Position numbers and translations under genes: made by a program. Under the pieces are notes generated by a model. That model saw only the letters and a list, made by a program, of their open reading frames with translations. It was not told the origin of the DNA and searched no databases. A stretch of DNA of 64,000 nucleotides from Antedon mediterranea. Lineage: Eukaryota; Animalia; Echinodermata. The stretch covers positions 4,858,101 through 4,922,100 of the forward strand of contig NC_092677.1 in NCBI RefSeq assembly GCF_964355755.1. Direction: 5' to 3'. Of the stretch, positions 2,966 to 57,390 are shown piece by piece (position 1 is the first letter of the stretch; each line of letters starts with the position of its first letter).

Positions 2966-3061
2966 GTGGACGAATGCTGTACATCATTCTGATTGTTGTG
3001 ATTGTTGTGATTGTTGTGATTGGGCTGGTTTGTCTGTTCATATATTTAGTGCTTCTTGTTT
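2966..3061 (+). CDS. Gene A transmembrane exon
   Basis: GRMLYIILIVVIVVIVVIGLVCLFIYLVLLV, ag|...T|gtaagt; homologous to 41228-41308. Confidence 0.85.
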
Positions 3062-5821: not shown

Positions 5822-6009
5822 GTAAACTTTGACATTATTCTGTATACTTTCAATGTCAACATGAGAATGCATTCAAACAATCAAAACCCACTTGTGCTGT
5901 TATTTTTGGCTTATTAAGTGTACTATATTTTTTAATTTGTCTTTTATTAATGAGGGAAGACTGTGTTTTATTGAGCCAATTATTTTACTATTATTGGAAG
6001 TAGGCCTAC

Positions 6010-9539: not shown

Positions 9540-9727
9540 GTAAACTTTGACATTATTCTGTATACTTTCAATGTCAAAATGAGAATGCATTCAAACAATC
9601 AAAACCAACTTGTGCTGTTATTTTTGGCTTATTAAGTGTACTATATTTTTTAATTTGTCTTTTATTAATGAGGGAAGACTGTGTTTTATTGAGCCAATTA
9701 TTTTACTATTATTGGAAGTAGGCCTAC

Positions 9728-20464: not shown

Positions 20465-20615
20465 TAAGAAAAAAAATAAATATATATATATATATATATA
20501 TATGTATAAGTATCCAATATAAGTATACAGTATATCAATAATATGGCAAATAGACATTCCAAGAATCACGTACAATTGTTTCATCTACCAATGTTCACGC
20601 TAGGTTACAAATCGC

Positions 20616-20633
20616 TCCCGGACGAGCCCCCCA
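20616..20633 (-). promoter_or_regulatory. Primer binding site complementary to the tRNA-Pro 3' end
   Basis: The minus strand reads TGGGGGGCTCGTCCGGGA 4 nt after the 5'LTR; the known tRNA-Pro PBS is TGGGGGCTCGTCCGGGAT. Confidence 0.85.
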
Positions 20634-27290: not shown

Positions 27291-27337
27291 TATGACCTCT
27301 CGCCTGTATTTTCATTTTCTCCCCCTTCTTTTTATAG

Positions 27338-34900: not shown

Positions 34901-36290
34901 TGTCTTCCAACACTTGTTTTAGCATCCTCTCCTTTAAACTGGTCACTTTGTGCTTTACATGCATATCTCCCACCATATTCTTCAGTAGCTGATTTAATTA
35001 CAAGCACTGACTCTACATTGTTATTTGCTGTTACGTATTTAGAAGTTTCATTTATATTGACTGTCTGTCCATCTTTATACCACGTAATGTCAGGAATAGG
35101 GTCACCATCATGTTTACTACATGTAAAGGTCACGGAATGACACTTATATGCAGAACCTGATGACACATTAAGAAGAGGTTGATCCAAGTCTGTAAAAACA
35201 TAATAAAATAGTACTGCAATGTGACAGTTAATAAATAAAGAATGATATTTATTATTATTTCAATTTAGTCGGACATTTACTGATAGCAATCTTTTGGTGA
35301 ATGTCAGAGGGGATTTCAGATATATAGCTACTAATCGTGTAGCGTAATGTACCGATGACATGCAGTGCCGGCATCTGCATGAACCACCGAAGTAGATTTC
35401 CAGGCCGAGAATAATTGTCTTCATACATTTCAGATATTATTTATTTACAAATGAAAGAAAAAAACAATTTTTTTAGAATAATGACATTAATTTTACTTAC
35501 AATATACAGTTAGTAACGATTGGTTTGACATTTCAATGTTCCCATTTTTTGCTCGAATCTTGCATTGAAATGCTCGTTTAGAATCACCTCTGGTTGGCTG
35601 TGACATCACCAAGTCAGCTCTACCAGGTGTTATGTTTAACTTAAAACGATCATTTTCCATCTTGTTCTTATTAACAAAACCAGGATTAATGATTACCCCC
35701 TCATGTAGTTCATCCCATTGTATTACATCAGGTGTAGTAGACATAACTTGAGAATAATCACAAATTATTACCCCTTCAACGTCACCCTCTTTTGCTTTTT
35801 GGTCAGATGCTGTCACCGACTGTCCATGTGATTCTAACAAAAAGAAAAAAATACCAAAAATACTAATACATGATATACTAAGGTGTTTTGATAAGCAACA
35901 TTAATCGTAAAATCAGATTAAAACATTTATGAATTTTTATTTTTCAATGACGTTTAAATTGGACTTGGAAACATTTCATTAAGACACGAAAACTGTTCTA
36001 ATTGTTTTTCTGTAGAAAAAATCTAAACGGCTAATATGTTGTCCTTATCGTCCTTATAAACATGTTTTTGTGTGTCTACTATCTATCTACTCCCTGCTGT
36101 TGTAATTTCAACCATAACACGCATTTATTTTAACTATTTAACTATACAGTATGTCTGTCTGTTATACGACAGCACCAACTAATAATAAAACTAATAGAAT
36201 TACGATATTAAGAAATACCACTAGAGTGTAATATACTTTACCGAATAAAGAATGCTGTATAACAATTAGCAACGTCAACCATAACGCCAT
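31907..36290 (-). CDS. Gene B: intact type-I Ig-superfamily receptor (SP-V-I-domain3-TM-ITAM plus Tyr repeats), 594 aa
   Basis: 11 GT-AG exons: 36290-36242, 35833-35501, 35189-34881, 34562-34332, 34206-34112, 33995-33831, 33670-33572, 33112-32993, 32826-32719, 32419-32300 and 32062-31907. Total 1785 nt, open from MALWLTLLIV to TAA. Confidence 0.9.
32300..33670 (-). repeat. Four tandem phase-0 cytoplasmic exons (two types, alternating) encoding HQYQDLQV...DD(E/D)GY
   Basis: Direct translation; CTTGCAGATCTTGGTACTGATG-type core at ~32378, 32775, 33061 and 33618. Confidence 0.9.
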
Positions 36291-37694: not shown

Positions 37695-40600
37695 ATGAGT
37701 GTGGGAAACGGGAGACCGAGACATAAAGTAAGCACAGTTTAGCATAAAATATTATGTATTTAATGTAGTTTTTGCATTCACTCGCGTTTTGCACTTAGAT
37801 AGCGCTAAAAAAACTACCAGTCCAAGAAGGGCAGGCTGACTGAGTTGTTCTCGCCCGGGTAGGACTAACAGGTGCTCTTTCTTGAATAAGTACTAACTAG
37901 GCCTAGGGGGCGTATAAATAGGGCGGTTCTAGGGCCTAGAAACTAACCTATCTATTTTAAAAATGTATATTTCTATTTTATTCACACTCTAGACGGACGT
38001 CCACTACTGAATGGTCTTTTTTTTTTCGTTTTATTTTTTGTTTTGGCATTGTTTGATTAATCATAATTAATAATGATTAAATACAAAATAAATTAATAAC
38101 AGTTTGAAAGATTCCATGGCAAAATCAATATGTTGATATAAAATTTGCAGTATGGTACACCATATATAAAATTGTCATTATTGGGTACAAGGATGAAGCC
38201 GGCTTCACTGACAATCGTTTTGAGTCACCATTGCCAGATGAATCTTTTACGATTGTATTTGTGGGGAGGTCCAACCAAAATGCAGTTGATGCATGTTCTC
38301 CAAACACAAGTGGCCTAGACTGAGAAAACTTTCACACATTGGACAAAACATATAAATATACTTTCTAAACAGTTGGAACTCACAGACTTTTCCAAACATG
38401 TGAAATCTGTTCTTCTTTCGAATACTGCTTAACTATCCTTAAGGATCAAAACAAGCAGGGTTTGTGCCCATGCTATTGCATGCATGATTTTGAATATTAA
38501 TGTTGACAGAGTTGTGAATTATAATCTATTATTGTTTAATATATAATTATTGTTATTTTTATTTTCAGTCTCTTGCAGGCCTGTTTTTGTTTGTAGTATT
38601 GTTGGATAATACTAAAAACAGTAAGTTTAATTGTATGGTCTAACTTATAACTTGCTTCATTTACTAGTACTAATTGATCACATTTGAATCTCGATACCTG
38701 GGTACCAATTTAGAAATAATTAGGTCAGTTGAATTATACACTTTTAGGTAACAAAAAAAGGCCATGTTGTAAATGTATGAACTAATGCTTATCAGTCTTA
38801 TCAGGCTGTTTTTTTATTTGATATCCATATTCAAATCCCATACACTATTTAAACTTTGGTGTTATTTCATTTTAAGCATGTGGTCAATTGGAGACAAAAT
38901 TTAACCAGACAGCTAAAGAAGGTGATACTGAAGTGGTGATTTCTTGTGATTATTCACAATTTACTTCTACTACATCTGCAATACAATGGGATGAACTAAA
39001 TGAAGATAGAGTAATTATTAATCATGGTTTTGTTAATGATGATAAGATAGAAAATAGGCGTTTCAAATTAACCGTTACACCTGGGAAAGCTGATTTGGTG
39101 TTGTCACAGCCAATGAGAAATGATTCTGGACGAACATTCCAGTGTGAGATACAAACAACAAATGGAGATACTCAAAGACTAAATCCATCTATGCTAACTA
39201 TTTATTGTAAGTAACAAACAAACAAACAATTTATTTTGATGTTTTTAATTAAATAGTCTATACATTTTGATAAATACACTGTGTACTGTTTTGATACTTC
39301 TCAGACTTGGATCAACCAATTCTTGATACCTCAGCAAGCACTGTCTATGAAGGTCAATCAGTGACCTTTACCTGTAGTAAACCTGATGGTGATCCTATTC
39401 CTCACATTACTTGGTATAAAGATGGACAGACAGCCAACACCAACAACCCTTCTAGATATGAGATTGCAAATACCAGTACAGAGTCAGTTCTTAAGATTAA
39501 ATCAGCTACTGAAGAAGATGGTGGGAGATATACATGTAAAGCAAAAAGTGATCAGTTTAAAGGAGATGATGCTAAGACAAGTGTCAAAGTACAGTTGCAC
39601 ACAATTGAATATTGTATGTACACATTTAATTTTAAATTAATAAATCTATGTCTGTAATGTGTAATAAATACAGTATATTTTATACAGTGAATAATGACAG
39701 AATACAGAATAACAGATCAGAAATTGAAAATACAAAGTTCCAAGTTTTCCAAATATAAATGGTAATTGTAATTAAAAAAAAGAGAATAATTGACTACTTT
39801 TTAATAATGGTAAAGTTAAAATAAAATTGCTACAGAATCTAGTTTATGACAACAATGTTAATTTTCTCTTGTTGTCTGTTGTTTACACTGTAAAGCTAAA
39901 TTGTTCAAATTGAAAATTTCAGTAAAAGGAAACAAACCTGTTAATGTTTGCTTTCTTTCAGATATTGTTGTTACTTTTACATCTAAAGATGGTTTTGCAA
40001 CATGTACAGCAGAGGGCCATCCCACGCCATCATCAGTATTGATATTACAAGATGGAGAAGTGGTTAAGGAAGGAGAAAATACAGCTACTATAGAAATAGA
40101 TGACGAGATATGTCCATCAAGTTTTACATGTTTTGCAGAGAATGGGAATCTCAATGAAACAACAACAATGGAGAAGTGTAATACAGGTAAATAAACCATT
40201 TTAAGGTAATATATTTAATGTTCTGCAAAAGAGGAAGCAAGACAACAGACAGGTCTCAAACATGGTCCGTTTATACAGTACAATTAATACTGAAGTTATA
40301 CTACAATATACCCAACAGTATACTACAAAATCATGAATTGCGTTTATAATGTTCATTTTATTTTTGTTTAAAAGACACATTTTTACATTGTGGATGAATG
40401 GAATTAAGTGTAAGATATATTTTGCATACATTTACCAACTAGTTTATTTTATGTTACTAATAACAGGTACTTTTTTTATGAATGTTATGCTTATTTATTT
40501 ACATTTTTGTTTCTTTGCATGTACAAATCAAATACGTATTCCTTTTTTTAAAACTACTTCTTTTAAACATAGCATTAAGTTCACTGGTCCTAAACTTTGG

Positions 40601-43600
40601 GATAACGTACCAGTTAATATAAAAAGTGCTTTGTCTAAGAAGAGTTTTTCTTTTAAATTGAAACGGCACCTCTTATCTAGTTATGTTTAATTATCCTTTC
40701 ACTCATTGTAGTTTTGATATTTAGTCTTTTCGGTACCCTGAATCTAAAAGTCTTCATTACTGTTTTTGTCCTGTTTCCGGTTCCCGTGTTGTCCTGTTTT
40801 TTTTTTTCAGTTTCTATGGGCTGCCTTATACAAGCTTTGCTTTTTAGGAATGTTGCCCCTCTTATTTTAATAATTTTTACTGTTAATTTTTATTTTCTAT
40901 GAAAGACAAGAGAAATAAATGTTACTTTGATTGATTGATTGATAGCACTCCCGCTATTGTTAAACATCACATCCAAAATAAAACTGCTTATTTTTATTTA
41001 TGATCTCTACTACATTAAGTGAAGTGGATTGTTTTAGTAATTTTGTTGTGAATAAGTTATAACCTTCATTGAATAGAAGAATAAAATATTACTTATTTTA
41101 TATTAATTTGTATTTTATAGTAGATTTTATGAGTTAAATTGTTTACTAATGATTCAATTTCTAAGAAATGTTTCTATGAATTCCATAATATGTTGATATT
41201 AATAATTATGTTTTATTGTTTTTTCAGATTTAAAATCATTCTACATCATTCTGATTGTTGTGATAATTGTTGGTTTGTTCCTATTCCTATGGTTACTGCT
41301 CGTTGTTTGTAAGTATTTTGATCTTTAATGCTTCATTGAAATATTAGCATACAAATAATTATAATCAATAAGCTATTGTTACTCTCTGTGTTTTGTATGT
41401 TATAGTGATCATTTGAAAGGTATTGAGAAGTCTGTTACCATTACAGCATTTTGATGAAATTGGTATATTTTTTGGCCTAATTTTAACAATTTTTAATGAA
41501 TATTGTTTTTGCTTTTCATTTAAACAAGTTTTAGAAATAAAAGAATTAATGTATAAGGATATAATAACTGATTATACAATGTATAATAATAGTATTGTTT
41601 ATTATAAAGTTTTTTATGTTCAATGATTTTTATTTCAGATTTTATGTATTACAAGAATATTGAGTGGAGCAATACAAATATTAATACAGTGACAGTTGAA
41701 GGTGGTAAACCAGTTACGATGAGTTGGAGATACCGTCCAAGTATTGCAAGGTTCAAGACTTTTGAAATAAAGAAAAAAGACAAGGTGCTTGGTTCAAATC
41801 CAAAGCAATTCAGTAGTTGTAAAACAGTCTGTCAGTTTGTCTGTTATTGCTGTCTTTACTTTTGTGGATTCTTTTGTAGTGAATACTGTAAGAAATCTTG
41901 TAAGTATTGGTTTTTTAGTCTTTTCATTGATATATACAGTTTTTACAGTATCTATCAGATTCAATATCAATGCATTTATTAAAATTCTTTTATATAATAT
42001 TTAATAATAATAATAATAATATTTTCTTATTGATTTTTCATAGTTGAATACAACAATAAAGATAAACAGAAAAATGGAAACAGGTGAGTTCCGTGTACTT
42101 TATTCACATTATATTAATTATAAGTTTTGTGCGTGTAGATATGGGGGTATAGCTGGAATGATGAGTAACCACATCAATGTTTACAATAAAAGTAAAAGAT
42201 AAAATAAAAGTAGTTGAATGTTATTATCTTGTATTGTGTTCCTATAGCAGTGGTAATAGAAGTGGTGAAGAGTATGAGATGATGGTGACTGAAAGAGACG
42301 GTCCTGATGGTGCAGAGTTCGCAACTGAAGACACTGCTGTACACCAACCAACAGCAGTCTCTGTTTATTTAGAGGTTTGTTTTCTGAAATTTAAGTAAGC
42401 CAAGGTTGTTAGTTTTAGTTTTAAAGAAAAAAATGTTTTATAAAAGATCATTAAATCAGGATGCCGAAACTGAAGACACTGCTGTAACATGCAAAGAGTT
42501 TATGAGTTCTATCTAAACTATAAGCACTTTTAACTCAGCTCGACTATGGGAGTAAGAATTCAAAGAAAACCAACATGCCTTTAAATGATGTTGGTAAAAG
42601 AAAGGGCAATGACAATCAACTACAGTATTTAATAAACTAAATTTATATAGTTATTGTGTAAACAGGTTTTTGAAAGTTTATTTGAAAAATAAGTGTCTTG
42701 ATTTTTTTTCGAAGGCATGTCCAGATGATGAAGAAAGTCAACTTATATCCGAATATCAAGAAACATCAGGTGAGAACACTTTCAATGACTTAAAAAAAAT
42801 TAAAATAGAACATTGCCGACTTCTGAATACCATAATAATTGAATGTTATGTCTGTTCAGATTTGTTTATTAAAGACACCTTCCCTACAATTTGTGACGTT
42901 TTGTAAAAATAATACATATATATTACTTTAAAAACATTAAACCAGGTCATTCCTTGTCTTAAATGTACGTTTTATGGTAAATTATGATAAAAAGTGAGAA
43001 ACAATGCACTACCTAAGTAGCTCGCGGCGAATGACCTCTCGTGGACGGTCTTTAGGCCTACTGTAGCCTAGCTAGGCTTAGTTTTCTAGGCCTAGCTCGT
43101 AAACATCAGTAACGTACGAACATCGTACGCTAGCTATATACCTAGCCTGACGTTGTGTAGTTGCTACATTAATTGTCTTTCTATTTTTGCCAGACTCTGT
43201 TGATACAAATTGGGGAAAATCCGGTCTTCCATTTGATTTGACCTCACGATCGATCGAAAAGTGGGTGAATTACAGAAGAAAAACAAAAATATCAATTCGT
43301 GCGCAATGCATTTTGGGATTTATAGTGGGCCGCTATAATTATTAGAATCGACTTATTTTTCACATTTGTAACCATTTAAAGACGAAAAAAGTTATCGCAA
43401 TAGGACCATAGTATTATTTTTACATTAAATATACTGTAGTTTGTGCTCTTAAATTAGATCTAAAAAACGTAGGGAAGGTGTCTTTAATTGTTCTTCTAAA
43501 AGAATAAGCAAACATCAGTTATAAATCTGTGGCGAATCCCTCACAAATTGTAATGCAAATGATAGGATATCAAATTAAGCTCTGGCAGCCCTTCATTTAA

Positions 43601-46600
43601 AAATCATGGATCTGCCATTGTCAATAGTGAGTTTTTTTTGTGGTTACTGTACATTGAATTATCCTCTACTTGTGAGGTTTAATGACTCTTAACTTTCTGC
43701 TTTCAAGGGTGTATCTTACTGTTATTTTTATTTTTGCCTATACCTTAAAAAAGCCTAAATCTCTACTGTTTATGTACTGTATTGTATTTTTTATGTTCTA
43801 GCAAAATACCCAAATGAAAGGTAATATTTTATCATCAAGCTTTGAATGAATATGCAGTTCACTTCTTTCTTAAAATACTGACTGCAAAAAAAAACTATGC
43901 TTATGATTCCCCGTTGTAAACATTATCTAAGTACAAAAATATGTTAAAGGCATGCAAGATGAAACTTTATATTAGTGTTTAAACATGTGTATAGATGATG
44001 ATTATTTTAATAGAAATTAAGCTAAAATTTCATCCCACAAAATGCTCTATTTTAGTATTGTTAAATTCAATTCAACTTTTATTGAAATATTGGGGCAAAA
44101 TATTCTGACCAATTAGCTGGTCATAATATTTTGCCCCACTAAGACATAATTTTACTAGATTATTATTCACTTTTATTTCAAATATCAAAAAAATTGACCA
44201 AAATTACAACTCGTGGCAAGAGCCAAATTGCGTGTAAAATACATGTCATATCAAAAATATATATATAAAAATATAAAATTAAAAAAAACAACAAACAACA
44301 AAGAAGGGGAGAGCAGTCGCAAGCTTGCAGGGGAGAAAATTAAGAATTTAATAATTTGATGAAGTAGGGTATAGGACTAATTAGTAAATCTGGATGTTTT
44401 AGACGCTAGCTGGGTAATTTTGTTTTTATTTCTTAAATTCCTACCATGACAGCTATGTCTGGTCGGTGGGATTAAATCAGCTGTTTGTTTAATTTTGGGG
44501 AGATACTCAGCGAACTTGCAACAATGCTCCACCCTTCTTTGTGCCAAAAGTCTCTAATTTAAGAAATTCAAGGGCACCAGAGTAAGAAAAGTAATCGTTG
44601 CCTAACATTATACGGCAAGCCCTCTTTTGTACATTTTCAATACAATCGCTTAATCTACAGTACTAGTCAGGCCAGAATGCCAAACAACATCAGCATACTC
44701 AACAACTGGTCTAATACAGTATAACCACAAAAGGTCAATTTAGTACATTATGGATACTTAATTTAATTTTTAGTTGGGCCTCAAAACCACAACCTCCAGA
44801 TCACCAGACCATCAAGCTGTCGCTGATTGCTAGATCCAAGTTTAAGCCTTACAACATTTTTACTGTTGCTACTCACTTCTTGCCTATGTTGGTTCTTGTT
44901 ACATTTACCAAAAATGATATAATCATTCATTGTGTGATGTTATAATATTTTCTTTTTTACTTTGGCTGCTATCTCTTACAATGTATATAGTATTGTCCAT
45001 TACAGTCTCCATCCGCTTACTTACCAAAATATACATTGTTCTTCATTAGATATTTTGATTATAAATATATGGTTTCTTTCACCTGCTTATACATTGGTTG
45101 CTGTATTCTACAATACATTGATATGTATATTATACTATTGTACTCTTACATTTTGATCATAACAATAAATAAGTACCGGTATTAGAATTTAGTCATCAAA
45201 ATTAGTGCGAGTTAGTGTGGTGAGACTATAGTACAAAGTGAATTACAAATATGTTTTTTTATTTCATTTTTTAAACATTTTTAAACAGAATTAATTTATA
45301 TATTATCATTGCAAAATAACATTTATCATTTTTATATTTTAAAGTAAATGTATAAATCAGCACTGTTTTTAAATCCCAGATATGTCCCTGATATATTTAT
45401 AACTTTACTATTTTTCGTTTTGTTTTAGATCTAAAACTTCATACTCAAGTAAGTATTAACGGAAATATTTTCAATTTTGAATTACATTTAATTAAGCATT
45501 GTTGAGTGACATTCACACAAATCCAAATGTCAGTTTCATTATCATTTTGTATCCTTTGTAAGTACCGAGGGGTCACAGTGAGTGAAAGTTAAACTGTACA
45601 TTATCAAAGTGTTGGATCATTTTACCTTGAATCTTTAAAAGCAACAAATAGTTTTTTTAACTTTGCGTTTAAGTGTCTACAAGTGGTAGAGGAAAAATCA
45701 ACCTAACGTTTCCAAATTCTGTGAGATCTAATTCAGGAGAGTACCACTGCAGTATAGAGGGCAGCAGACAACAGTATCCAGGTGTTACAAATTTATTTGT
45801 TTATTGTGAGTTAATAATTCTGTGATTTTTTCATTACAGTGTAATATATTACCTCATGTTTACTTTTTGTAAAGTTTTTCTTGAAAATGGAAATATAATT
45901 ATAAGAAGCAAATTCCATATATTGCATAATATTTGTATATATAATTTTATTATTTAGGGATTGAGATGGTAAATTTAAACAACTCAACAGAACAAGGCTT
46001 CAGTAATGCTAAAATGATGTGCAGATATGGACCAGCAGATATGCCATTAACAGGTTACAAGTGGAAGAAGATTAAGAAAGATGGCACAACAGAGATTGAG
46101 GATTGTTCTAAAGATTCTAGATTTGAAGTAACAAGTTACCAAAATAGCATTCTGTCTTTGAAGATAAAGAAGGCTAAACTTAAAGATGCTGGCAAGTATC
46201 AATGTGAAGTGACGCCAGTTGATGGAGGACAAATACTGAAAGATACTACACAACTGACAATTGAAAAAGGTAATTTTATGTTGAAAGAATCTTAAAGATG
46301 ATAAATGTTCTTATTTCATAATTTACTGATTTATAGTCAGCCTAATTCACTGTATGTATTTAGGAGGGGATTTTGATATGGGAAAATAATTGTCTGGAAA
46401 TATATTTCTAGACGCCCAGATAGCATCTGAGGCATTTTTACCGGTCAATTCATGTCATAAAATTATCTGAATATAGTGTGTTTTATAGACCATATTTAAT
46501 ATACAAATTTTTTGTTGCCAATAGCCTAAAGCCTGTGTGTGTACAGAAAGAATAATAACAACTAGACATGAAACTCGTCACTTTGACGAGTTTGGTTATC

Positions 46601-49600
46601 CACCGCGCAAGGGGTGCAACATGGACGTTTAACGCACAGATAAAGATTATGCCATTATGACTTGAACTGAAAAATATGATATGTTGTTATTGCTGAATTC
46701 TATTATTTTTATTCATATAGTATACACAGTATAATCTGTATCCATATCACATACAGTGTAGAATAGGTGAAATTACGGGACCCGCTATTTATTGCAATTT
46801 TTAACATGTTTACGGTTTTAAAATGAAACGCGAAGGTAGCAATTTCGGAAGGAAATTATCTCAGCAACAACATATTAACGTGTAGAAGAAATTTGAATAC
46901 GTGAAATATTGATGCACGCTCTTTTAAATGTGATGAACTATTACGCAAAATATGAAAATACGACTGTTTTTATTTAACTGGCCATATGATGACGTCACAA
47001 CATCCGATTGGCAAAATTTTTACATGATTTCGTATCTACAATCCAATAGCTTCCAGCCCGTTTTAATTGTGATTATCACGTTTTATTCTTACGATTAAAA
47101 TGTACTGTAAAGATGAAATTAACGCCACACATAATTAAAATTTTTAGGCATGATGACGTCATAAAAATTAAAATATTTTTAAAACATGCGAAAGATAGTT
47201 GATTGACCTAGACAATATCAAAATCTGGGTGAAAATGGAAAACGGATAAGTGGAGATGCGCTCTATTAAATGTGATGAGCTATGACGTAAGATACAAAAA
47301 TCCTAAATTTTATATTTGGGTGGCCATACGATGACGTCACAATGTCCGGTTAACCATATTAATGCATGATCCCATATCTACAACTTATCAACTTCCAGAA
47401 TATGCAATAAAAATAACTTTGACCGTTTAGTTTAGAAACTACGACTGTTTAAAAAAAGGTATAATTTTGACGAATTTTTGAACTTTTTCATAAAAAATGC
47501 ACGCAAATTATCCAATTCGACGTGCCCGTATGACGTAATTTTAAGTCGAAATTGTTTAAAAGTTGGAAAAATTACTGAAAAAGGCTGAAATAACATAAAT
47601 CATTCAAAAAAATTATGTTTTAACGCTACGTGCGCACCGTGCGTGTGAAAATTTGCGCGCGTGTGGGAATTTTTGACATGCCTAAAATGACATGAAACGC
47701 GTAAAAAATTGATTAGAAATTAATTTTGCGCATTTTGAAATTTTAAACGCGCGTGCCTGCGTAACTTTGTGTGAAACACGCAATTTTTTTTCAACAGAAA
47801 GTTAGCGCATGATATAAATTAAACTTTGTGCAAAACACGTAATTTTTTTCACACAAAAAGTTAGCGCATAACATAAATTAAACTTTTGCTAAGTTTCAAA
47901 TTAAAATGTTATATTGTTTTCGATCTATGTTAAATACGCGAAATTCATAAAAACGCGCGTAAGTCACGTTGCGCAACTCTGACGTCATTAAAAAATAAGC
48001 GGTGCACAACTTCACGTGAATGCGCATGTTGACAAAGTTAGGAAATGTTATGTTTACAAGTTTTAGAGATACGCTCTGCACAAAAATGACAGAAAGAAAG
48101 AAGAATACAGAAAAAAAAGATGAAACAGGACAGTTACAAGGAGTTATCCGCTCAATGCGGATAACTAAAAAAAGATGATGATGATGATGATTTCGTACAA
48201 TCACAAGAGGTTATCCTGCAACTTCGTTGCGGATAACCAATAAAGATTTTGTACAATAACAATAGGTGATCATTTTATTCTAAATGATCACCTAATAAAG
48301 ATTTCATACAATAACAATAGGTGATCATTTTATTCTAAATGATCACCTAAATAAATATATTTTACAAAAGGGTATTAAATGTAGAATATTATTTAGAATA
48401 TTTATATAAAGATATGATGATCATACAACAGTTCCTTACAGTAGTAATCCCACTAAACACACCTTTTCAATATGAACTTAATACCAGTTATTTAGGCATT
48501 ATCTATCGTCTTTGTATTAACTTTTTAAACTTCTTAGTATAGAAAAATATAAGAAAATGAAAGAAAAAAGGAGGTACAGTAGTATGGAATATAAAGTGAA
48601 TTTACAAGATTTAAAATGTTACTCAGCTGAAGTTTTCTCAAATGTAATGACATTAGAAATTAACAAAAATGTGATGAATAATAATGATGATTTTGGTGAT
48701 GACATGAAAGATGATATTAATGTGAATAAAAATGGTATTAATGCAACAAAAGAGAAAACAAATGAACTTAATACCAAAGAAAAAGATTTCAAAAAGCAAC
48801 TTATGTAATTTCTTGTCTTATTTAAATGAACCACTAATTTATGCCCTTATAAGACTCATGTTTTTAATCATTCTAGTTTTAAAAAGCTATAGATTTTTTT
48901 ATCTCACAGTCATCATTCACATTTGTAATAAAACATCTATTCTATCAAAGTTTGTAATTGTATTATATGCACATACCTGTAATTTATTTTTAAATTGTGA
49001 TATTCAAAATATTGATGATTTGTTTTGTCTTGTTTTTTTAGTTCCTCTCATCATGGAGATTCCGACCATTATTACCAGAGAGAGTGTAAATTATGTTAAG
49101 TTGATACTGAAGTTAACAAATGTTAAAAATTATGGTGAAATGTCCAATGTCATGTGGTATAAGCATATTGAAGGTAAAGAAAACAAGCTGCTGACATCAA
49201 TAAATTCACCTGATTCAACATCACGCTATCAATGTGGATATGTTGATGAAAGCAGTGCATATCTTGAGATCAGGAATGTTAAATCTGGAGATGAAGGAAA
49301 ATACATATGTCAAGTTGAATTTAAAGAAATGGAGCAACACAGACACAGTTGTTCTGGAAGGTTAACAGTTCAAGGTAAAAGCAGATATACAACTGGATCA
49401 TAATCAGGATGTTAGTATTATTAAGGAGGTTATTTCAATGGCAGTGAATATAAATACATTTTGAGCTTGGAATTGATAAAATTGAAAGGATTCATCCTTG
49501 AAACTTAATAATGTGTTGGATTGTTTGCCGAGTGTTATGTTTATGTTTTATAGTAAACCTTGTTAGTGTGAACCTTCCTTTCTTTTTTTAAATACTAGAG

Positions 49601-52600
49601 CCTAAAAACGAATTGAAATGCTAAACTATTTGTTGTATTGTTAACATTTTAAAGGTGGACCACTTTCAATATGCCAAGGAGGTATTATGTAGTCGATCGC
49701 GTGTGTTTGTTTGTTAGCAGGATTACTAAAAAAGTCATTTACCAAAATTAAAATACAGATAGATATGTGGTCAAGGAATTTTCAAAAGCCGGTGAGGCAG
49801 TCTTAAAGTAACAAGTAAACTGAAATTGCATTTTCTCGAGAACTACTTGTCCAAAAAACTTCATTTTTGTACAAGAGGCAAGAGTTATAATTTGTAATTT
49901 TAAAACATTTTTTTTTTTTTCAATTCAAAGTAACATTTATTTTCTTCAAAATAAAACAGTCTACAAAATGGAAAGAAAGGTAATTTAATATGATTGAAGA
50001 AGGCATGATCAAAAAAGCAAAAAGCTTGTGACAGACATGCCTAAACAAAGATTAGAAAAAAACAACACGGAAAAAGAAAAAAAATAAATAAATAAAAAAA
50101 ATAAAGAAATAACAATATAAAAATATACATAACATGGGTTAAACTAAATAAGTAAGATAACTAAAAAAAAACAATTTTGGTATAAATTAAGAATTGATTC
50201 GTCTTCTTGTTACTCATCATTAACATTATTATCATAAAATGTAATATAATAAAAATTAATACTTGGATGTGATATATCTTTTAAGTTTAAATGAAAAGCT
50301 TTTCTTAGATACAGCAACTTTAATATTTGAAGGTAGTTTATTCCATAGTTTAGGTCCACTAAATCTTATGTTATATTGAAATGATGTTTTTTTATGAAGA
50401 GGGATATGCATATCCTGTACAGTTCAAGTTCTATAATTGTGAAAAGATGCGTTTCGTTGTAATAAATTTGTAAATTGAGGTGGGTTTAGGGAGTTAATCG
50501 ATGAGTAGAGAAAAGTACACTGTTGATGATAGTTAAGATCTTTCAACTTTAAAAGGTTTAGGGAGGAAAATAAGGGATCTGAGTGAGCTAGTGGTGGTGC
50601 ACCTGATATTATTCGAACTACTTTCTTCTGTTTGATAAATAATCTGCTAGTGTTGGACTCATACGTGTTGCACCAAACTACATTTGATTTAATTTACAGG
50701 TTTTTTGATACGAGTAGTTTTGAAAAACCTATTTCTTTTCAAATTCACCCGTTTGTCTTTGGCGTTGCTGTTCTATTGTTAGTCAACTGAAACTATTGTT
50801 TGTTGAAAGGCTGGTTACATAACCATTACACCAAATTCGCGTACACATGCTTGTAATGAAATTAGCCTAAGACACACAAAAATATATATATATTTTCCCG
50901 GAGAAATCTTATGTAGGAGAATTTTACAGTAGGCGGAGGTATGCACTCTCGGAGTGGCTTCTAGTTGTTATTGAAAGCAATATAATCAAGACAATCAATT
51001 AAAATATTTTGGTATTAATATTGATAATCAGTATGTTACTTGCATTTTGGTTTCAATAAATTTACATCAAGGCATTCAAGGTGTATATTAAGTCTATTTC
51101 ATTTATTTATTAGACTTTATCACTGCATATAAAAATAAATTTTAAAAATCAGAAGAACAAAGGCAGTAAAAAGAAAGACATGAACAAGTGGCCAGCACCT
51201 CTATCGATATCCTTAAACAAATAATTACATGTATTCACATATTTTGACAACTGACAAGAAATGACATTTCTATAGATTTTAAACAAACAAGTCTTGGTCA
51301 ATTTACTCTTGCATATATAGAAACACTGATTTGAAATCAATACTTTCCACTATACGATACATAATTTGCCTAATAAATTTATTTTAAAAGGCAAATTTAT
51401 AAATTCTGGTAGGTAAATATTTTTTAAAACAGGTACTGTATCACCCATATTATTGATCGGTATCAAAAATAATAATTATTACTACTGTTAGTGTATTACT
51501 ATTAGTATTTAATAATTAGTATAAATACAAAGAGGAATCTCATGTTGAGGTCCTTGTTTTTTTTTTCTATATACTTTACAATGTACAGAGTTAATACATT
51601 TTGTTTTCTTTGAATGAAATAATGGAATACAAAATTTAAAAAAAATGTTGATATACAAACCTTAAATTTAAGATCCTAACAGGATTTATCAACATCATAT
51701 GTTTACTATGAAGCATAGATGATTTGATTTAGAACACAATAAAAAAAATTATATACATGATATTATTATAAATGGGAAAATATTGATTTTTGTTGAAGTT
51801 TAATCTTTCTCCACTATGTCAGAAATGTTGACTAATTGCTAAATTCTAACTTTTAGTGCACCAGGAATAGACTTTCAGATTCAGAAACTAATTGATGGTT
51901 GTCTATACCTTTAAAGATTTAACAAAATATTTTAAAATAATTTTAAGAAATAAATATTTACAGTAACATGGTTTGTCCAGTATTATCTTTATTTTAGAAA
52001 TTCTCACTAAAATGTAAACATATCTTTTGTTTAAAAAAGATTTGGAAGTGTATGTATTGGTATTTTTTAACCAATACAGTGATTTTGTTACACATAAAAG
52101 CTTTACCTTTATATCCCTCATTATGCAGTGATTTAGAAAAGATCTCTAATAATCCTTGTCATTTTCATGTACATTGTCATTTTTTCAGTGCTTTCAATCT
52201 ATATCCATCAGTGGCTCTCATCTTTTCTTATTCATTCCTGACTATTAAGGATTATCTGTTGGCATTGTTGTTTGGCATATTCTTATTTTAGTGCAGTGTC
52301 TGTATGTAAATGAGAATCTGTGTATAGTGCTTATATTTTACAGAATGTAAAAGAGAATGTACAGTTTCATGTCCTGCTTTGCTCTTTGCTATAATTCTAT
52401 GTTCTTTTTCTGAATCACTATGCAATGCCACCAAGTGTGTTTTTGTCTATGTTCTATGTTGAAAAATCTGATGCTGGTGACTACCTTTGTCAATGTGTGA
52501 CAGGAGGAAAGGATAATGAAATTCACTCGGCAACAAGCAAATTAGTTGTGGATTCATGCTGTAAGTATGTTTGGTGTTATTGGTACATTCAGCCACTCAT

Positions 52601-55600
52601 GTACACTGAGCCAAATTTCTGTAATTCTGTTGCTGTTGCTTTCATTATACCAGTCATTGTTGGTGTAGTATAAACTCTTGCGTGCTGCTCTTATGGTTCT
52701 TTACAAGTTATTAAAATATATTTGCATTAATACATCAATCTGTGTGTGATCTGTAGAGTTGGCATACAAACCCTCTCAACTTTATTGCCATTATTTGTCT
52801 CGCAATATGATAAATTATGCACATTTTCATGGTAATTTGACATGGCCTGAATAGAATATAGAAATAGATGAATGAGAAATTCATTAAGTATTTCAATATC
52901 TTATCTTTTAGTTTTAGACATGGATGATAGTTTTGTAGCATCAGTTGGAGAAAAGGCTGCTTTAACTTGTAAAATATAAAATAGAGGATAAAGATATTTT
53001 CGTCAGTTGGTATATTAAGAAGACTAATGAAAAAAAAAATTCATATGGTCTTCTGATAAATCAAAACAGAAGAAGATATTAAAAGAAGTACAAGAAAGAT
53101 GCAAAGTAACTTTTGATGGTAATGGGTCCTGCTTAGAGTTGGAGAAAGTGGAATTGGTTGATGCTGGACAGTACATTTATGAACTTTATAAGAATGAGGT
53201 TAATGTTATGGGCACAAAAAAGACACCATTACATACAAGAGCATCAAGCCTGTGTGTACAATGTAAGTCAATTGTTATTCAGGTTTTGCTTCATGAACCC
53301 TCATTTTGTGAAGGTTATTTTCTTTTCAAAAGTAACCTGTAACACAATGTGAAGAGTGGCCCAGCCCACCCAATCTCCCACCTTTAATTTCGACAATGTA
53401 AAAGTAGGTTAGCTTCAACATTTCAAATCACAATTTCTGCCTATGCCCTATCCTGTGGATGAACTGCTATTCTCTGATTCTGATGAATAGTAGTTTATTG
53501 CCCAAAACATATATTGTAGCCCAAAACGTATATTGTAGCCCTAATAAATGCAACTGTCATCGTAACATTTTAACATCATAACATTTTAACAGTCATATTA
53601 ATAATTTTATTATTTATTTTACAGTTATAATACATTAAAGATAATGCGCACTACAAAAAAATTATCAGAAATATTACCATAACTCCCAGAGATAAAGTGA
53701 TGCATACGTAGGAATGACGCACTTTGTTGATGTTTTAGAGCGATGTTTTTTGAAATTAAGATTTTTTTGGCAAATTAATTTAGTGTATGGTATAAAAATC
53801 ATTTTCTTTAGAAGTAAATGTTCAACAGATCTTTTTGTTGTTTTTTGGGGGGTTTTTTTGTCCTTAGGGTCCTCATGAGAGAAGTCACTGTCTTTTTGTG
53901 ACCCTTTTAAGTTTTACCAGTTCGTTTATTTGTTTAATCTATGTATGAAAATTTAAAAAAGATACTCAAGTTCGTTATTAGACCTAATCCATTTAGGTTT
54001 TTAGATCTAAGTGCAATCATTGCCATAAGTTCATGAGATGAGATAATTGATGGACAAGTCATATTATTCTGACAAAATCAACAATATGCAATGCATAACG
54101 TAATGAATGTTTAGTTAAAATTGTTAAAATTTTATACAAAAATAATATTGAATTGAAAATTGGTTTATTTTTGTAGTAGTGGATGTGTTTTCTGCAGTTG
54201 ATAGGGAACAAAGAAACATTTACAGGTAATTGTTATGACTATTTTAATCCCGATACATCACCATCTACAAATACTATTATAGATTATGGAATTGAAATTG
54301 GTTTAGAGAGGTTTGTATTTACATTTGTGTAGTTCTCTACTACTATTGTTGGTCTAACTCTAAGAAAGATTTATTGTGATAAGAAACTAGTTTGTATTTG
54401 AAATAAGCAATGTATAAAAAAATAATACAATTTTTATACATAGTATTTAAACTTAAAACGTATAAATGTTGGTAACAGCTTCTATTCTGCTTTCTTTTTT
54501 CCCCATATAATTAAAGTTCCATTTCTATTTACTGCATATGGTCATTAAATAAACAAGCATGAAGCTCTGTTGAATGGAGGAGATTAAAAAATAATATATA
54601 TATATCATAAACCTTTGAATTTGTTTTTCATATGGTTGTAATCTGTATCTGTGTGGCAAATTAACTAAATATATTCGTCCTCCATTTATTTGCCCTTATT
54701 AAGTGGCACGAAAATAAAAAAAAAATTTTACGGTTAAAATGAAGTGTTAAATTTTGTTTCTATTGAATTCTACTATTTACTATACAGTTTTCAGAATCTA
54801 GTACTAATTGTGACAGATAAGAACAATGGAAAGGTGATTCTCATGTGTATTAGAGAAAACAACAACACAAAAGAGAGGAAGATTATAAGGATGACATCTG
54901 ATGATAATGGAGAGAATTGCAATAGTCTAAGTGAAGTACAACTTGATTATAAATTCAATAGATAGCCTAAGTAAGTAGTTTTCAATGATTTTCCATGGCC
55001 AAAACACTGATCAAAAAATTGTACGGGAAAATATTTTATTGAGTTTGTTACTTCCATATTATTTTTAACTACAATTAAGGTCACAAAGGTACATTTTATG
55101 TAAAATAAATACTATATGGACCCAGTGGGATTTTTTTTATCTTTAACCGGTTAAAATGTGAAAAATAAGTTGATTACAATAATTTAAGTGGCCCGCTATA
55201 AATATCAGAATGTATCGTGCGCGGATTGGTACTGTATGTAGTTAACCCTAGCCGAAACTATGCCTAAGATCGTCCACGGGAGGACATTCAATGTGAGCTA
55301 CTTGTGTAGTGCATTGTTTCTCTGAATTGATCATAATTTACCATAAAACGTACATTTAAGACAAGGAATGACCTGGTTTAATCTTTTAAAAATAATATAT
55401 ACGCATTATTTTTACAAAACGCAGAAGAAACAATTAATCTAAGTCTATAAAGTATAACTTTTTTTTTATTTCAAAATTTTATTTTCACGTCTACTTGGTT
55501 ATATGTGTAGTGGGAAAAGGTGTTGTCTTGATTGAAAAATTAAAGATATTATACAAAAAATACATTTTGTTTTTCAGGCTTGGGTAATGGTGTATGCTTA

Positions 55601-57390
55601 AATTCTGGAAAATTGGTTATTGCAGGAATTTTGAAGCTGAAATATGATCAGCGTAAGAAAGTAACATTCAAAGAGGCCTCAAATAATTGCCCTCAAACAT
55701 TGCACATACAATATTCAATTTATGTTCCTTTCTCATTCTTAGTTAACAGACATATTTAATGTAGGAGATTATTGTCCTCCTCATTTAACCCTTTACATAC
55801 AATTATAGAAACTAGAGGGTGTACTCACTCTATATTAAGTAGTGTACAGAGATAGTTCTTGAATTAAATTATGAACATGTAATAAAAATTGTTCATCTGC
55901 CAGTCTTCACATAATACACTAGTTCTAATTTTGTTTTAGTTTTGGAAATTAATATCAACATCTACATAAACTATTCTTGTAAACTGAACAAGTAATAAAT
56001 AATAACAATTGATATTATAGCGCTCTACAAAGAACACAGCACTTTATAGTAGAAGTATAATTGGATACAGACGTATTTGAAACAACATGTCGTCTTTACA
56101 TTTCTAATGTCACAGAGAAGCTGATTTCAAAGATGCAGATTACATGCTTTGTCACTAGCTTGTGTGAGAAATTATTAGTCTTGTGGCATGACGGTGCAAA
56201 CGTAGTCGACATTTGTGTTGTTCAAAATTAGAGTATATTACTCTGGAAAACTGGATATTTTGTAATGAAAAGCAACACTTCATGATCTTATAATTGATCT
56301 TGTGAAAATTTACTGTAGCTAATATTGCTTTCCAAACACTTGCAAAAAAAAAGCATTGAAAATATATTTTAATGGCTCTGGAGCTGCCTCTACATAACCA
56401 ATCAGAGATTTCAAGTGTAATAATTAAAACTTCTACATACAGTATGGCATAGATCTGATCATTAGTTGTAATTATTTTAATTTTGAGTTATTTGTGCTGT
56501 TGTTTTTGCAGGAAGACTATTTGTAATGAGAAGTGTCGATAATGGTGACATCTGGACAACTGATGTTAAACCACTTGATGCTCCACCAGATGCTACCTTG
56601 GGAGAACACATACAAGTAAGATGAAGAATTTTCCATTGTGTTTATTTGAAATTGTGGTATCAAGTTTTTTCACACAGATTTTAGTAGAGATCTCTAAATG
56701 TTACTTTGTCATATAATGTGATTTTTATTAGGTTGTTGAATATGCTAATGATCTAGTTAACATCAGCTGTTCGTTCGAGGGCTCTAAACAGTGTTTCTGT
56801 ATATACAGTGATACAGGATTTAAAGTATTTGATTGCCAGATTAAGGATGCAAATCCAGAATGCCAGGTACTTTATAATATGAAAGCTTGTATCTCTAGTG
56901 TTGTCTGTCTAGTTGTGGTATATAGTTGTATAGATACACTACCTATCTATTTTAATGTATTCTAAAATGTTGTCATCACTACTACTTTTACAATAAAAGG
57001 TGGAAGTTCTGCTGTAGACACAAATACAATAATGTTGCATGAACTCTGCTTCTTCATGGATAAATTATTTGTACATAATTTTTCCTTAAATTGCATTTTT
57101 ATCTAGGGTTGTATCGTACGTTTACCAACAAAGACAAATAAGTTCTACCATATAGCAATGGCAAGTCATGGAAATGAAACGGATAAGGATCTTACACTTT
57201 ACTTAAGTGAAGATGGTTGTAAAACCTGGTATCAGTTTAACACACTAGGTGCAGTGAATGCAGAAGAATCTGACCTAGCTTACTACAGTGTAAAAGAAGG
57301 TGAAGAAGAAGCAAAAGGAATAGTGTGTGTTACAGTTATGGTTCAGAAACAAAGGGTTATAATATTGGAATGCAGTTAATTTCTAACAAA
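37695..57390 (+). CDS. Gene C: SP-V-I-domain3-TM-linker-multiple Ig-sialidase-like protein; 5' part open, 3' part disrupted
   Basis: In-frame exons 37695-37727, 38569-38620, 38877-39206, 39305-39613, 39962-40186, 41228-41308, 41639-41899, 42044-42083, 42248-42374, 42715-42769, 43802-43820, 45429-45448, 45958-46269 and 49042-49374. Then frameshifted Ig exons and sialidase exons. Confidence 0.7.
40510..40943 (+). mobile_element. CR1/L2-group LINE 3' fragment
   Basis: KTTSFKHSIKFTGPKLWDNVPVNIK..SFSFKLKRHL; tail AATAAATGTTACT(TTGA)n; same family as 49920-50690. Confidence 0.75.
41639..41899 (+). CDS. Gene C juxtamembrane exon: Ig-like N-terminal strands plus a Cys-rich hydrophobic segment
   Basis: TVTVEGGKPVTMSWRY...CKTVCQFVCYCCLYFCGFFCSEYC, phase 1-1, good splice sites. 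Confidence 0.65.
42873..43483. mobile_element. Non-autonomous DNA transposon with TTAA target site (Kolobok-like)
   Basis: TTAA|AGACACCTTCCCTAC ... GTAGGGAAGGTGTCT|TTAA; a partial inverted copy lies at ~55130-55420. Confidence 0.8.
44063..44745 (-). mobile_element. CR1/L2-group LINE 3' fragment
   Basis: Minus strand CIRPVVEYADVVWHSGL..ENVQKRACRIMLG..SPIPYFIKLLN; tail AATAAAAGTTGAATTGAA. Confidence 0.7.
45958..46269 (+). CDS. Gene C post-TM Ig exon (canonical C-W-C)
   Basis: MMCRY..YKWKK..LSLKIKKAKLKDAGKYQCEV..TQLTIE, phase 1-1. Confidence 0.9.
46561..48350 (-). mobile_element. HINE/Helentron-like non-autonomous repeat(s)
   Basis: AACTAG next to hairpin AAACTCGTCA-CTT-TGACGAGTTT; GGTTATCC/GGATAAC subterminal repeats; terminal hairpins at 48140-48350; related fragments at 3340-4700 and 58340-58880. 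Confidence 0.55.
49042..49374 (+). CDS. Gene C post-TM Ig exon lacking the B-strand Cys
   Basis: NVMWYK..SRYQCGY..AYLEIRNVKSGDEGKYICQV..GRLTVQ, phase 1-1. Confidence 0.88.
49670..50966 (+). mobile_element. HINE-like element interrupted by a minus-strand CR1/L2-group LINE fragment (~49920-50690)
   Basis: GCCAAGGAGGT..TGTTTGTTTGTTAGCAGGATTAC start and GGCGGAGGTATGCACTCTCGGAGTGGCTTCTAGTT end. The nested minus-strand peptide reads QKKVVRIISGA..HSDPLF..GPKLWNKLP. Confidence 0.65.
52344..53262 (+). pseudogene. Two frameshifted Ig exons of gene C (52344-52560 partial; 52918-53262)
   Basis: VEKSDAGDYLCQC..SKLVV; ASVGEKAALTCK/ ..VSWY../ ..LELEKVELVDAGQYIY with indels in A-runs near 52973 and 53035. 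Confidence 0.75.
54177..57390 (+). pseudogene. Sialidase-like exons of gene C
   Basis: Exons 54177-54225 (DVFSAVDREQRNIYR), 54788-54970, 55578-55652 (GLGNGVCLNSGKLVIAG), 56512-56615 (SVDNGDIW), 56732-56866 and 57107-~57390. Stop at 54963-54965 and a 1-nt deletion near 57331. Confidence 0.8.

Follow-up and report, generated by a model that had tools for sequence, protein, structure and literature searches.

Genes and exons at the locus

The window, a 64,000-nucleotide stretch of the Antedon mediterranea genome, is crinoid DNA. It contains genes A to D, and gene B, which is broken in part, belongs to a gene family of feather stars. The features are listed below; the three Ig-like exons of gene B precede a transmembrane (TM) exon.

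600..29320, + strand: gene A, a decayed paralogue of gene B
31907..36290, - strand: gene C, an intact 594-aa receptor (signal, three Ig, TM, tail)
37695-37727 and 38569-38620, + strand: gene B exons 1 and 2, start and likely signal peptide (hydropathy only)
38877-39206, 39305-39613 and 39962-40186, + strand: ectodomain, three Ig exons, all phase 1 and open
41228-41308, + strand: TM exon (19-residue Kyte-Doolittle mean, 3.47)
41639-41899, + strand: N-half of a likely split Ig, followed by a hydrophobic string rich in Cys (Kyte-Doolittle, 1.6)
42044-42083, 42248-42374 and 42715-42769, + strand: linker exons
43802-43820 and 45429-45448, + strand: micro-exons of 19 and 20 nt
45674-45805, + strand: C-half of the likely split Ig (V-set positions 70-108; E, 0.0094)
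45958-46269, + strand: Ig4, open, both canonical Cys present
49042-49374, + strand: Ig5, open, lacking the B-strand Cys; final intact exon of the continuous chain
52189-52560, + strand: Ig6 pseudo-exon, in-frame stops at 52239, 52311 and 52392; only its C-terminal third is recognisable
52912-53262, + strand: Ig7 pseudo-exon, two frameshifts (~52971 and ~53032) with stops
54177-54225, + strand: propeller exon s1, starting in phase 1 without an ATG
54788-54970, + strand: propeller exon s2, TAG at 54963-54965, ending in the wrong phase
55578-55652, 56512-56615, 56732-56866 and 57107-57379, + strand: propeller exons s3 to s6, an open chain corresponding to RefSeq XP_071958832
59097..63667, - strand: gene D, a gene C paralogue with tyrosine-motif tail exons; its 5' end lies beyond the window

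The open chain of gene B runs without a stop from the ATG at 37695 to 49374, through 15 exons with GT-AG junctions, and encodes 776 aa in the order signal, three Ig, TM, split Ig with Cys string and two more Ig. It is 65% identical to the RefSeq model P0003 (503/776) and 64% identical to P0004 (496/776), and its micro-exon peptides match P0003/P0004 at 4/6 and 7/7 residues, indicating that the exon chain is not due to chance. Across the full-length models P0003, P0004, P0005 and P0008, identity was 59 to 65%. These results confirm the proposal of the preliminary description that the phases continue through the micro-exons into Ig exons. Its remark that two post-TM Ig domains lack a canonical Cys was likewise correct; the B-strand Cys is absent, also in the paralogues. 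In the ectodomain, the second exon matched the Ig_3 profile (E, 4.5e-18), the third matched weakly and the first had no Ig match. The linker and micro-exon region (42044-45448) is a low-complexity insert, basic and then acidic. A candidate exon at 42460-42483, phase-neutral and with a weak acceptor, was excluded from the model. Exon 45674-45805 had been overlooked previously.

The 3' part of gene B is decayed. It had been stated that no stop follows the TM; this holds only as far as 49374, beyond which stops or frameshifts occur in 52189-52560, 52912-53262, 54788-54970 and the last exon, where the frame shifts near 57323-57329 relative to the paralogues. The exon carrying an R-H-P motif between s1 and s2 is also decayed. 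The phase 1 start of the first sialidase exon and its lack of an ATG were as described. An assembly error behind the s2 lesion was ruled out, as the contigs of both haplotypes carry it, although these contigs may derive from the assembled sample. Of gene B, RefSeq annotates just s3 to s6, and does so as a gene of its own with a 201-aa product (XP_071958832, P0007). The longest open chain reaching the last exon encodes 971 aa, with four distal exons bypassed. The gene B product is at most a receptor of 776 to 971 aa in which a complete propeller is absent.

Gene A had been credited with the same order as gene B. Its propeller exons do chain into an open 304-aa stretch (27338-29320), but s3 is missing, the second Ig exon carries a frameshift (~1647), and comparison turned up no counterpart in gene A of the half-Ig/Cys exon, the second half-Ig or Ig4. 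Its linker exons are repeated five times. The distal Ig pieces have degenerated.

Family architecture and membrane topology

The full chain of three Ig, TM, a variable number of further Ig and propeller is present in four RefSeq paralogues of 1,166 to 1,454 aa (XP_071958824, XP_071958844, XP_071958647/8 and XP_071958852), and a fifth Antedon gene, XP_071957667, runs from TM to propeller in both of its isoforms, X1 and X2. All of these full-length members are automated gene models. A TM is present in gene B and five Antedon genes; it is strong and follows the Ig ectodomain in gene B and in 4/4 of the full-length models P0003, P0004, P0005 and P0008. The Pfam scan took in seven models, with P0008 left out; BNR_2 exceeded the cut-off in six, among them P0003, P0004 and P0005, the exception being P0007, and no kinase, RhoGEF or FN3 family was reported for the seven. 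The Ig-TM-Ig-sialidase-fold architecture that was proposed for gene B is thus supported at the level of the family, but not for gene B itself, whose distal exons are broken.

The two halves of the first post-TM Ig align to the N- and C-parts of one Ig profile, and the N-half score was beaten by 0 to 5 of 200 shuffles. The complex score of the halves was 0.37, compared with 0.02 for the best control; the runs agreed in at least 81% of contacts, and partner pLDDT was at least 51. The complex-score mark was reached by 51/78 solved pairs and 2/108 mismatched pairs, and a pass at or below 0.60 carries little weight and might stem from resemblance to Ig folds already solved. The first post-TM Ig is predicted to be split around the Cys string. 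AlphaFold2 applied to the TM-proximal region of P0008 with nine sequences gave pLDDT below 50 over residues 1 to 224, with Ig4 alone folded, and the ESM Atlas matched P0004 residues 290 to 560 to Ig-type clusters at 0.89 to 0.90, which is a lead only.

Topology was assessed from hydropathy and from sequon counts in related, non-independent paralogues. Before the TM, 33 glycosylation sequons were observed and 15.8 expected, with none of 2,000 shuffles as high; after it, 40 were observed and 34.8 expected (p 0.19). The enrichment is confined to the pre-TM part, which fits a cytoplasmic tail. Against a cytoplasmic tail, the TM is not immediately followed by a basic cluster, and both canonical Cys are retained in several post-TM Ig domains. 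Hydrophobic N-termini were detected, by hydropathy only, in gene B, P0003 and P0005 and are absent from models P0004 and P0008. A cytoplasmic position of the distal Ig domains and propeller would match the sequon, cysteine and phylogenetic evidence.

Alternatively, the Cys string may be a second membrane span that places the distal Ig domains and the dead propeller outside, the latter as a sialic-acid lectin. The string has a 19-residue hydropathy of 1.6 to 1.9, no other segment is as well conserved (86% mean identity), the canonical Cys pair is retained in several post-TM Ig domains, and inactive trypanosome trans-sialidases are described as lectins in the available part of one report (PMC5504189). 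With a second span, however, the membrane would separate the two halves of the split Ig, and a Lys-rich patch would face outwards. Sequons are not enriched after the TM, P0008 continues in frame without the string (possibly a modelling artefact), and the loss of two of the three carboxylate-binding Arg speaks against sialic-acid binding. We consider this topology unlikely.

The family was also compared with Anneissia japonica, which belongs to another crinoid family. The Ig-propeller half of the architecture is present there, and P0020 has the Antedon order of half-Ig, Ig4, Ig5, Ig6, Ig7 and propeller. These relatives surfaced only in the full HMMER search; beyond Antedon, the word-index searches had yielded just two bacterial-type sialidases. 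The suggested search for copies in related species, which outside Antedon covered the Ig-propeller part, thus recovered that part. A TM is missing from 3/3 Anneissia models as well as from seven Antedon models (P0001, P0002, P0006, P0007, P0010, P0013 and P0157).

These ten models without a TM would be expected if annotation had fused two adjacent genes, a short Ig3-TM receptor and a soluble obscurin-like Ig-pseudo-sialidase whose start would lie close to the exon for the second half-Ig. That half-Ig is where P0020 and P0013 (one protein under three accessions) begin, the gene B tail is modelled separately in RefSeq, and an AATAAA lies at 41536, just past the gene B TM exon. Among the joints listed for sequencing-run contigs, none linked the TM to distal exons, and no transcript spanning TM to propeller was seen in those runs; none of the runs listed is recorded as RNA, runs X2 to X5 behave like DNA of one sample, and taking X1 as RNA is a guess only. 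On the other side, the reading frame continues through four models and two isoforms, whose micro-exon peptides match, and between 41308 and 45674 the chain used showed no terminal exon with a stop that could end a short receptor. A separate protein would also open with half an Ig whose other half directly follows the TM, a weak argument. Two fused genes are, on balance, distinctly improbable, and a single receptor gene is the preferred reading.

The predicted sialidase-fold propeller

The AlphaFold2 model of P0006 (pLDDT 85), built on an alignment rich in active sialidases, superimposed on human NEU2 with Z 36.3 and an rmsd of 2.6 Å over 325 aligned residues. A single-sequence PDB search with P0006 missed the sialidases, which a profile search recovered. 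A six-bladed beta-propeller of the sialidase fold is predicted from this model. BNR/Asp-box repeats are present, and the F/YRIP motif is degenerate (R-[HRQ]-P). The domain shares its predicted propeller, Asp boxes and this motif with animal GH33 NEU2, NEU3 and NEU4 and invertebrate NEU5 (PMC3431349, available part). Unlike those free-standing enzymes, the crinoid propeller has lost five of six catalytic residues and is fused behind Ig domains and a TM.

The same single catalytic residue, the first Arg of the triad, is kept in 9/9 propeller sequences. The second Arg (replaced by Ser/Thr) and the third are kept in 0/9, as are the acid/base Asp, at the column of P0016 D46, and the nucleophile Tyr (Glu, Ser or Cys instead), and the Glu of the nucleophile pair is His in 9/9. 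A cruder alignment to one bacterial enzyme had placed a nearby Asp in the acid/base column. Since one of six catalytic residues remains in all nine sequences, the propeller is, by its residues, a pseudo-sialidase, and an active enzyme was rejected on the same grounds.

The sister group of the propeller comprises crinoid sialidase-3/4-like (NEU3-like) sequences (SH 98) in a FastTree tree of 49 rows with a stem branch of 1.18 and no recognised NEU1. The propeller is predicted to derive from a crinoid NEU3-like sialidase. The sole full-length member of the sister group, P0016, lacks a signal peptide. Hydrophobic N-termini do occur in two hemichordate NEU-like proteins of the tree set (P0044 and P0066), and the wider clade is therefore not uniformly cytosolic. 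In one contig of run X1, two propeller exons of a paralogue similar to P0004 are directly joined, the intron being absent.

That the propeller is a passenger, captured once and now decaying cluster-wide while the receptors work via ectodomain and juxtamembrane part, is improbable: the distal region or its surroundings are damaged in each of the two window copies, isoform P0009 stops mid-propeller, and the dN/dS between genes A and B is about 1 in s4 and s5 (1.12 and 1.06, few codons), but the last exon is 80 to 90% identical among paralogues with an A-vs-B dN/dS of 0.38, the His in place of the catalytic Glu is invariant, and propellers that are open over their full length persist in two families, in seven sequences of Antedon and two of Anneissia.

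We favour, as reasonably probable, the reading that gene B belongs to a tandem crinoid family and has decayed at its 3' end, and that intact copies of the family encode predicted single-pass surface receptors. Three Ig domains would likely lie outside. On the inside there would likely be a split Ig with its Cys string, a further two to five Ig domains and a dead propeller serving as a docking module rather than an enzyme. In the proposed mechanism, the ectodomain would bind a cell-surface ligand. The Cys string and the basic patch behind it may be S-acylated and tether the first Ig on the cytoplasmic side to the inner leaflet. The Ig chain would keep the dead propeller at the cell cortex, within reach of partners of the ancestral cytosolic sialidase, which it could bind. 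The propeller receptor might thereby tune the signalling of a co-transcribed partner with tyrosine motifs, much as paired recognition receptors do. Non-catalytic docking by a sialidase has a precedent, reported for NEU1 in the available part of PMC8591358.

Paired layout and known receptors

Genes B and C are arranged head-to-head, with start codons 1,404 bp apart. Over the three Ig exons they share 62 to 70% identity, whereas their tails are unrelated. The tail of gene C contains nine YxxPhi motifs and one strict ITAM pattern; matches to the ITIM pattern on the gene B side fall inside predicted folded domains or the Cys string. To judge from the sequence, this is a paired-receptor layout.

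Paired IgSF receptors, such as the CEACAM, SIRP and Siglec pairs, combine a shared ectodomain with different tails. The crinoid genes resemble them in the tandem cluster, the birth and death of copies, the shared (here three-Ig) ectodomain and the ITAM-like motifs in one partner. They differ in that the propeller partner has 850 to 1,100 residues of Ig and pseudo-enzyme in place of a short ITIM tail.

Receptor-type phosphatases carry dead intracellular enzyme domains (D2) on IgSF receptors, and the PTK7 pseudokinase is an IgSF receptor of this kind (PMC9496920, available part). Like these, the crinoid proteins have an Ig ectodomain, a single TM and a dead domain proposed here for signalling or docking; they differ in that their dead domain is of the glycosidase propeller type and in having Ig domains beyond the TM as well. 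Cytoplasmic Ig chains of the obscurin/titin type, after which RefSeq names P0020, are alike in their tandem Ig domains, some without the Cys pair, but the Antedon proteins have a TM and ectodomain, and Pfam reported no kinase, RhoGEF or FN3 family on the seven models scanned. In the literature searched, no published receptor with Ig arrays on either side of the membrane, or ending in a dead glycosidase, was found, nor was a crinoid immune-receptor study.

In plants, head-to-head NLR pairs carry integrated decoy domains. Divergent transcription and a dead copy of a host enzyme in one member are common to both systems, whereas the protein families are unrelated, the crinoid receptors are surface Ig proteins, and effector sensing is without support here. 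In a more speculative reading, which we consider unlikely, the crinoid pair would be an animal surface counterpart of plant paired NLRs, with one receptor signalling via tandem tyrosine motifs and its partner bearing a cytoplasmic dead sialidase as integrated decoy or sensor on a split, lipid-anchored Ig stalk.

The gene B copy itself is of low value, and the intact paralogues matter. The crinoid family offers a natural setting in which sialidase functions that need no catalysis could be tested separately, and the locus is a candidate recognition locus in crinoids. Family copies are gained and lost quickly, and the TM region of gene D is interrupted by a reverse-transcriptase-type insert. In RefSeq, the Antedon proteins are labelled 'uncharacterized' and the Anneissia fragments 'sialidase-3-like' or 'obscurin-like', names that mask both the fusion and the catalytic loss.

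Architecture and topology of the crinoid family

Querying with the last exon of gene A recovered 7 proteins out of 72 candidates, every one from Antedon and from a single 28.6-Mb contig; further searches enlarged the family. The Ig-TM-Ig-sialidase-fold order that the preliminary description assigned to gene B is broken distally in that copy but is whole, from ectodomain and TM through Ig chain to propeller, in four RefSeq paralogue models, and the architecture of the family is well supported. The HMMER search (1.84 billion representatives, 400 matches at E 0.001, 150 of the 400 listed) added, among the matches listed, at least three proteins of Anneissia japonica (Comatulidae).

P0003, Antedon, 1,435 aa: full-length
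P0004, Antedon, 1,411 aa: full-length
P0005, Antedon, 1,166 aa (two accessions): full-length
P0008, Antedon, 1,454 aa: full-length
P0020, Anneissia: half-Ig, four Ig, half propeller
P0014, Anneissia: Ig and propeller
P0015, Anneissia: propeller

P0020 aligns with P0004 domain by domain, and the B-strand Cys of Ig5 and Ig6 is lost there as well. The Ig-propeller order is shared in a second crinoid family; a TM was found in none of the three Anneissia models. A profile built from the Ig domains that follow the TM in Antedon matched 10 of 156 proteins, all crinoid, although distant Ig domains could be missed.

A single strong span (3.1-3.6, 19-residue hydropathy window) characterises every model that carries a TM. 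A weaker Cys-rich string (1.6-1.9, same window) is present in five of the six, P0008 being the exception, with a Lys-rich patch C-terminal of it. Sequons in four pooled, non-independent paralogues numbered 33 before the TM (15.8 expected) and 40 after it (34.8 expected). Cytoplasmic placement of the post-TM part is moderately supported. Against it, both Cys are kept in Ig4 and the last Ig domains, and a basic cluster right after the TM is absent. A passage of PMC11416241 places NEU2 in the cytosol and NEU3 at the membrane, and mentions a study proposing that S-acylated NEU3 faces largely outside, so sialidase ancestry alone does not settle topology. A propeller outside the cell is unlikely.

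The stretch of 62 residues past the TM resembles the beginning of an Ig profile (score equalled or exceeded in 0-5 of 200 shuffles), and exon 45674-45805 resembles the last part of the same profile. A single-chain AlphaFold2 model of this region in P0008, from 9 sequences, stayed below pLDDT 50 over residues 1-224, with only Ig4 folded. Folded as separate chains, the two pieces scored 0.37 against 0.02 for the best control, with at least 81% of contacts in agreement and a partner pLDDT of 51 or more. Of 78 solved pairs 51 came up to this mark, as did 2 of 108 mismatched ones; since scores up to 0.60 are more often wrong than right unless the pairing is likely beforehand, and may echo solved Ig folds, the prediction lends weak backing to a split Ig. 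An 8-residue Ser/Pro/Thr repeat in tandem interrupts an Ig5-type domain in P0008 and P0158, which would make this the second post-TM Ig domain split by an insert.

Gene B: open chain and distal lesions

The window DNA is of the intron-rich animal type (31% G+C). Splice-site mapping followed by phase-based exon chaining gave 776 aa without a stop from 15 exons of gene B.

37695-49374, + strand: signal region, three Ig exons, TM, half-Ig/Cys-string exon, three linker exons, micro-exons of 19 and 20 nt, second half-Ig (45674-45805), Ig4, Ig5

The phases are continuous through the micro-exons into the Ig exons, as previously claimed, although that earlier chain overlooked exon 45674-45805. Identity of the chain to the four full-length models is 59-65%; in the micro-exons, 4/6 and 7/7 residues agree with P0003/P0004. 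Propeller exons s4 and s6 match XP_071958832 (P0007, 201 aa, Antedon mediterranea) at 100% by tblastn; the P0007 sequence is s3 to s6 of gene B as translated here. On this match the window is assigned to that feather star (Crinoidea, Antedonidae).

The statement that no stop follows the TM fails beyond 49374, where the distal exons carry stops and frameshifts. The Ig6 exon has three in-frame stops, the Ig7 exon has two frameshifts, and the R-H-P exon is beyond recognition. In s2 a TAG stands at 54963 and the phase is broken; the final exon has a frameshift close to its 3' end. Across every combination of the eight distal exons that ends in s6, the longest open product was 971 aa, joining Ig5 to s3-s6, about half a propeller. 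Short-read contigs across s2 showed 0 differences in run X3 (record 12) and 10 substitutions, 0 gaps and no change at the stop in run X4 (record 20). Polishing error was ruled out as the source of the s2 lesion because contigs of two haplotypes carry the stop; the runs spanning s2 may derive from the assembled sample. Contigs of X4 and X5 lack one base at 52971, indicating that the first Ig7 frameshift is polymorphic. An inverted pair of high-copy repeat elements (42897-43477 and 55051-55421), of very high depth across the runs compared, surrounds the Ig4-s2 part of the gene. Long imperfect, MITE-like palindromes lie at 57444-57557 (120 bp), directly beyond the gene B stop, and at 1210-1554 (345 bp).

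That ectodomain and propeller belong to two genes rather than one chain is quite unlikely. Seven Antedon family models have no TM; a fifth Antedon gene runs from TM through a full propeller in isoform X1 (P0158) and stops mid-propeller in isoform X2 (P0009). The isoform labels and modelled micro-exons in RefSeq presumably reflect transcript support. In a contig of run X1 (from another study, RNA by guess only), the last part of a P0004-like R-H-P exon is fused directly to s2; these exons are 249 nt apart in gene A, and the joint therefore fits a spliced paralogue propeller transcript. The joint lies within the propeller exons and leaves the TM unconnected to them. The divergent, TM-less P0013 (XP_071944339-41, three accessions for one protein, separate 39-Mb contig) begins at the second half-Ig and is possibly a soluble form or a 5'-damaged copy.

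The sialidase-like propeller

BNR_2 passed the cut-off in 6 of 7 models. The AlphaFold2 model of P0006 (pLDDT 85; 72-sequence alignment, mostly active sialidases) matched human NEU2 with Z 36.3 and rmsd 2.6 Å over 325 residues, bacterial sialidases with up to about Z 35, and mouse NEU1 with 33.7. Six residues are described as essential in a passage of PMC3431349: three Arg, a Tyr/Glu pair and an Asp. Their columns were transferred via the Antedon sialidase-3-like P0016 (aligned with NEU2 at E 2.7e-30) to 9 family sequences, 7 Antedon and 2 Anneissia, excluding the partial models P0001, P0007, P0009, P0010 and P0020. The first Arg is the sole catalytic residue retained (9/9). Asp, Tyr and the second and third Arg are lost in all nine, and Glu is replaced by His in 9/9 across two crinoid families, which suggests that a new surface or a metal site has been conserved. 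Ten ordinary deuterostome sialidases retained the catalytic residues wherever the column was covered. Predicted loss of catalysis in the family propeller is well supported.

In a FastTree of 49 rows (9 family members, 10 deuterostome enzymes and the first 30 remaining matches by id; no recognised NEU1), the family propellers formed a single clade (SH 100), sister to the crinoid sialidase-3/4-like P0016, P0017 and P0021 (SH 98). The stem branch is long (1.18), and long-branch error in this placement is therefore possible. P0016 has no signal peptide, and two hemichordate relatives have hydrophobic N-termini.

Mean identity among paralogues is 64% for the first Ig, 86% for the Cys string and 85% for the last propeller exon. 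The A-vs-B dN/dS, from small samples and two damaged copies, is 0.99 in the first Ig and falls to 0.38 in the last propeller exon, with 1.12 in s4 and 1.06 in s5. That the propeller is carried as a passenger domain is quite unlikely.

Neighbouring genes and a possible docking role

Gene order alternates by strand: A (+), C (-), B (+), D (-). The ATGs of C and B lie 1,404 bp apart, with a CpG-richer stretch in between, as the one head-to-head pair in the window.

31907-36290, - strand: gene C, intact 594-aa ORF of 11 exons with signal, three Ig, TM and tail

The gene C Ig exons are 62-70% identical to the three of gene B. Its tail is assembled from phase-0 repeat exons that all carry a Y-Q-D-L motif, followed in some by Y-V-R-P, and contains 9 YxxPhi motifs, one strict ITAM pattern among them.

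On balance we favour, with some reserve, the joint reading that gene B is a decaying copy of its family and that the family consists of single-pass recognition receptors with a docking module. The ectodomain would recognise a ligand; the Cys string, if S-acylated, would anchor a cytoplasmic Ig stalk; and the stalk would present the catalytically dead propeller for docking. Such a receptor may act beside a tyrosine-motif partner with the same ectodomain, of the gene C type; what the receptor binds, what docks on it and any functional tie to gene C are conjecture. A functional precedent is NEU1, which, according to PMC8591358, binds the MUC1 cytoplasmic tail and damps PI3K-Akt, catalysis not being required.

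The family, already in RefSeq as uncharacterized proteins, would join the IgSF receptors that have a catalytically dead enzyme domain inside the cell, here in a paired cluster. No description of it was found in full-text literature (mostly without subscription papers) on Antedon Ig/sialidase, crinoid genome/IgSF/immunity/ITAM, sialidase evolution, cytoplasmic Ig domains, inactive sialidase-like receptors, inactive trans-sialidase and pseudosialidase; the same kind of search returned no paper on Anneissia with sialidase or on integrated decoy/paired receptors. The crinoid receptors can be likened to CEACAM/SIRP/Siglec pairs, RPTP D2 domains, cysteine-string proteins and plant NLR pairs.

Gene A, described earlier as having the same order as gene B, does have openly chaining propeller exons (304 aa without s3), but it is frameshifted near 1647, its distal Ig pieces are degenerate, and a search for half-Ig and Ig4 exons detected none. 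Its linker exons occur five times in a ~3.7-kb tandem repeat (4422-23180, units 98-99% identical), which could give a length-variable linker or be an assembly artefact. Inside this repeat, ORFs at 18470-20584 (-) encode CCHC zinc knuckles together with a protease-like motif and, as labelled by motifs alone, are probably a gag-pro piece of an LTR retrotransposon. The tail exons of gene D resemble those of gene C, and its TM region is disrupted by a reverse-transcriptase-type insert, which we take to be LINE-like reverse-transcriptase C-terminal fragments (60409-62036, +). A 44-bp exact repeat occurs in the gene D region at 60576-60619 and 62510-62553.
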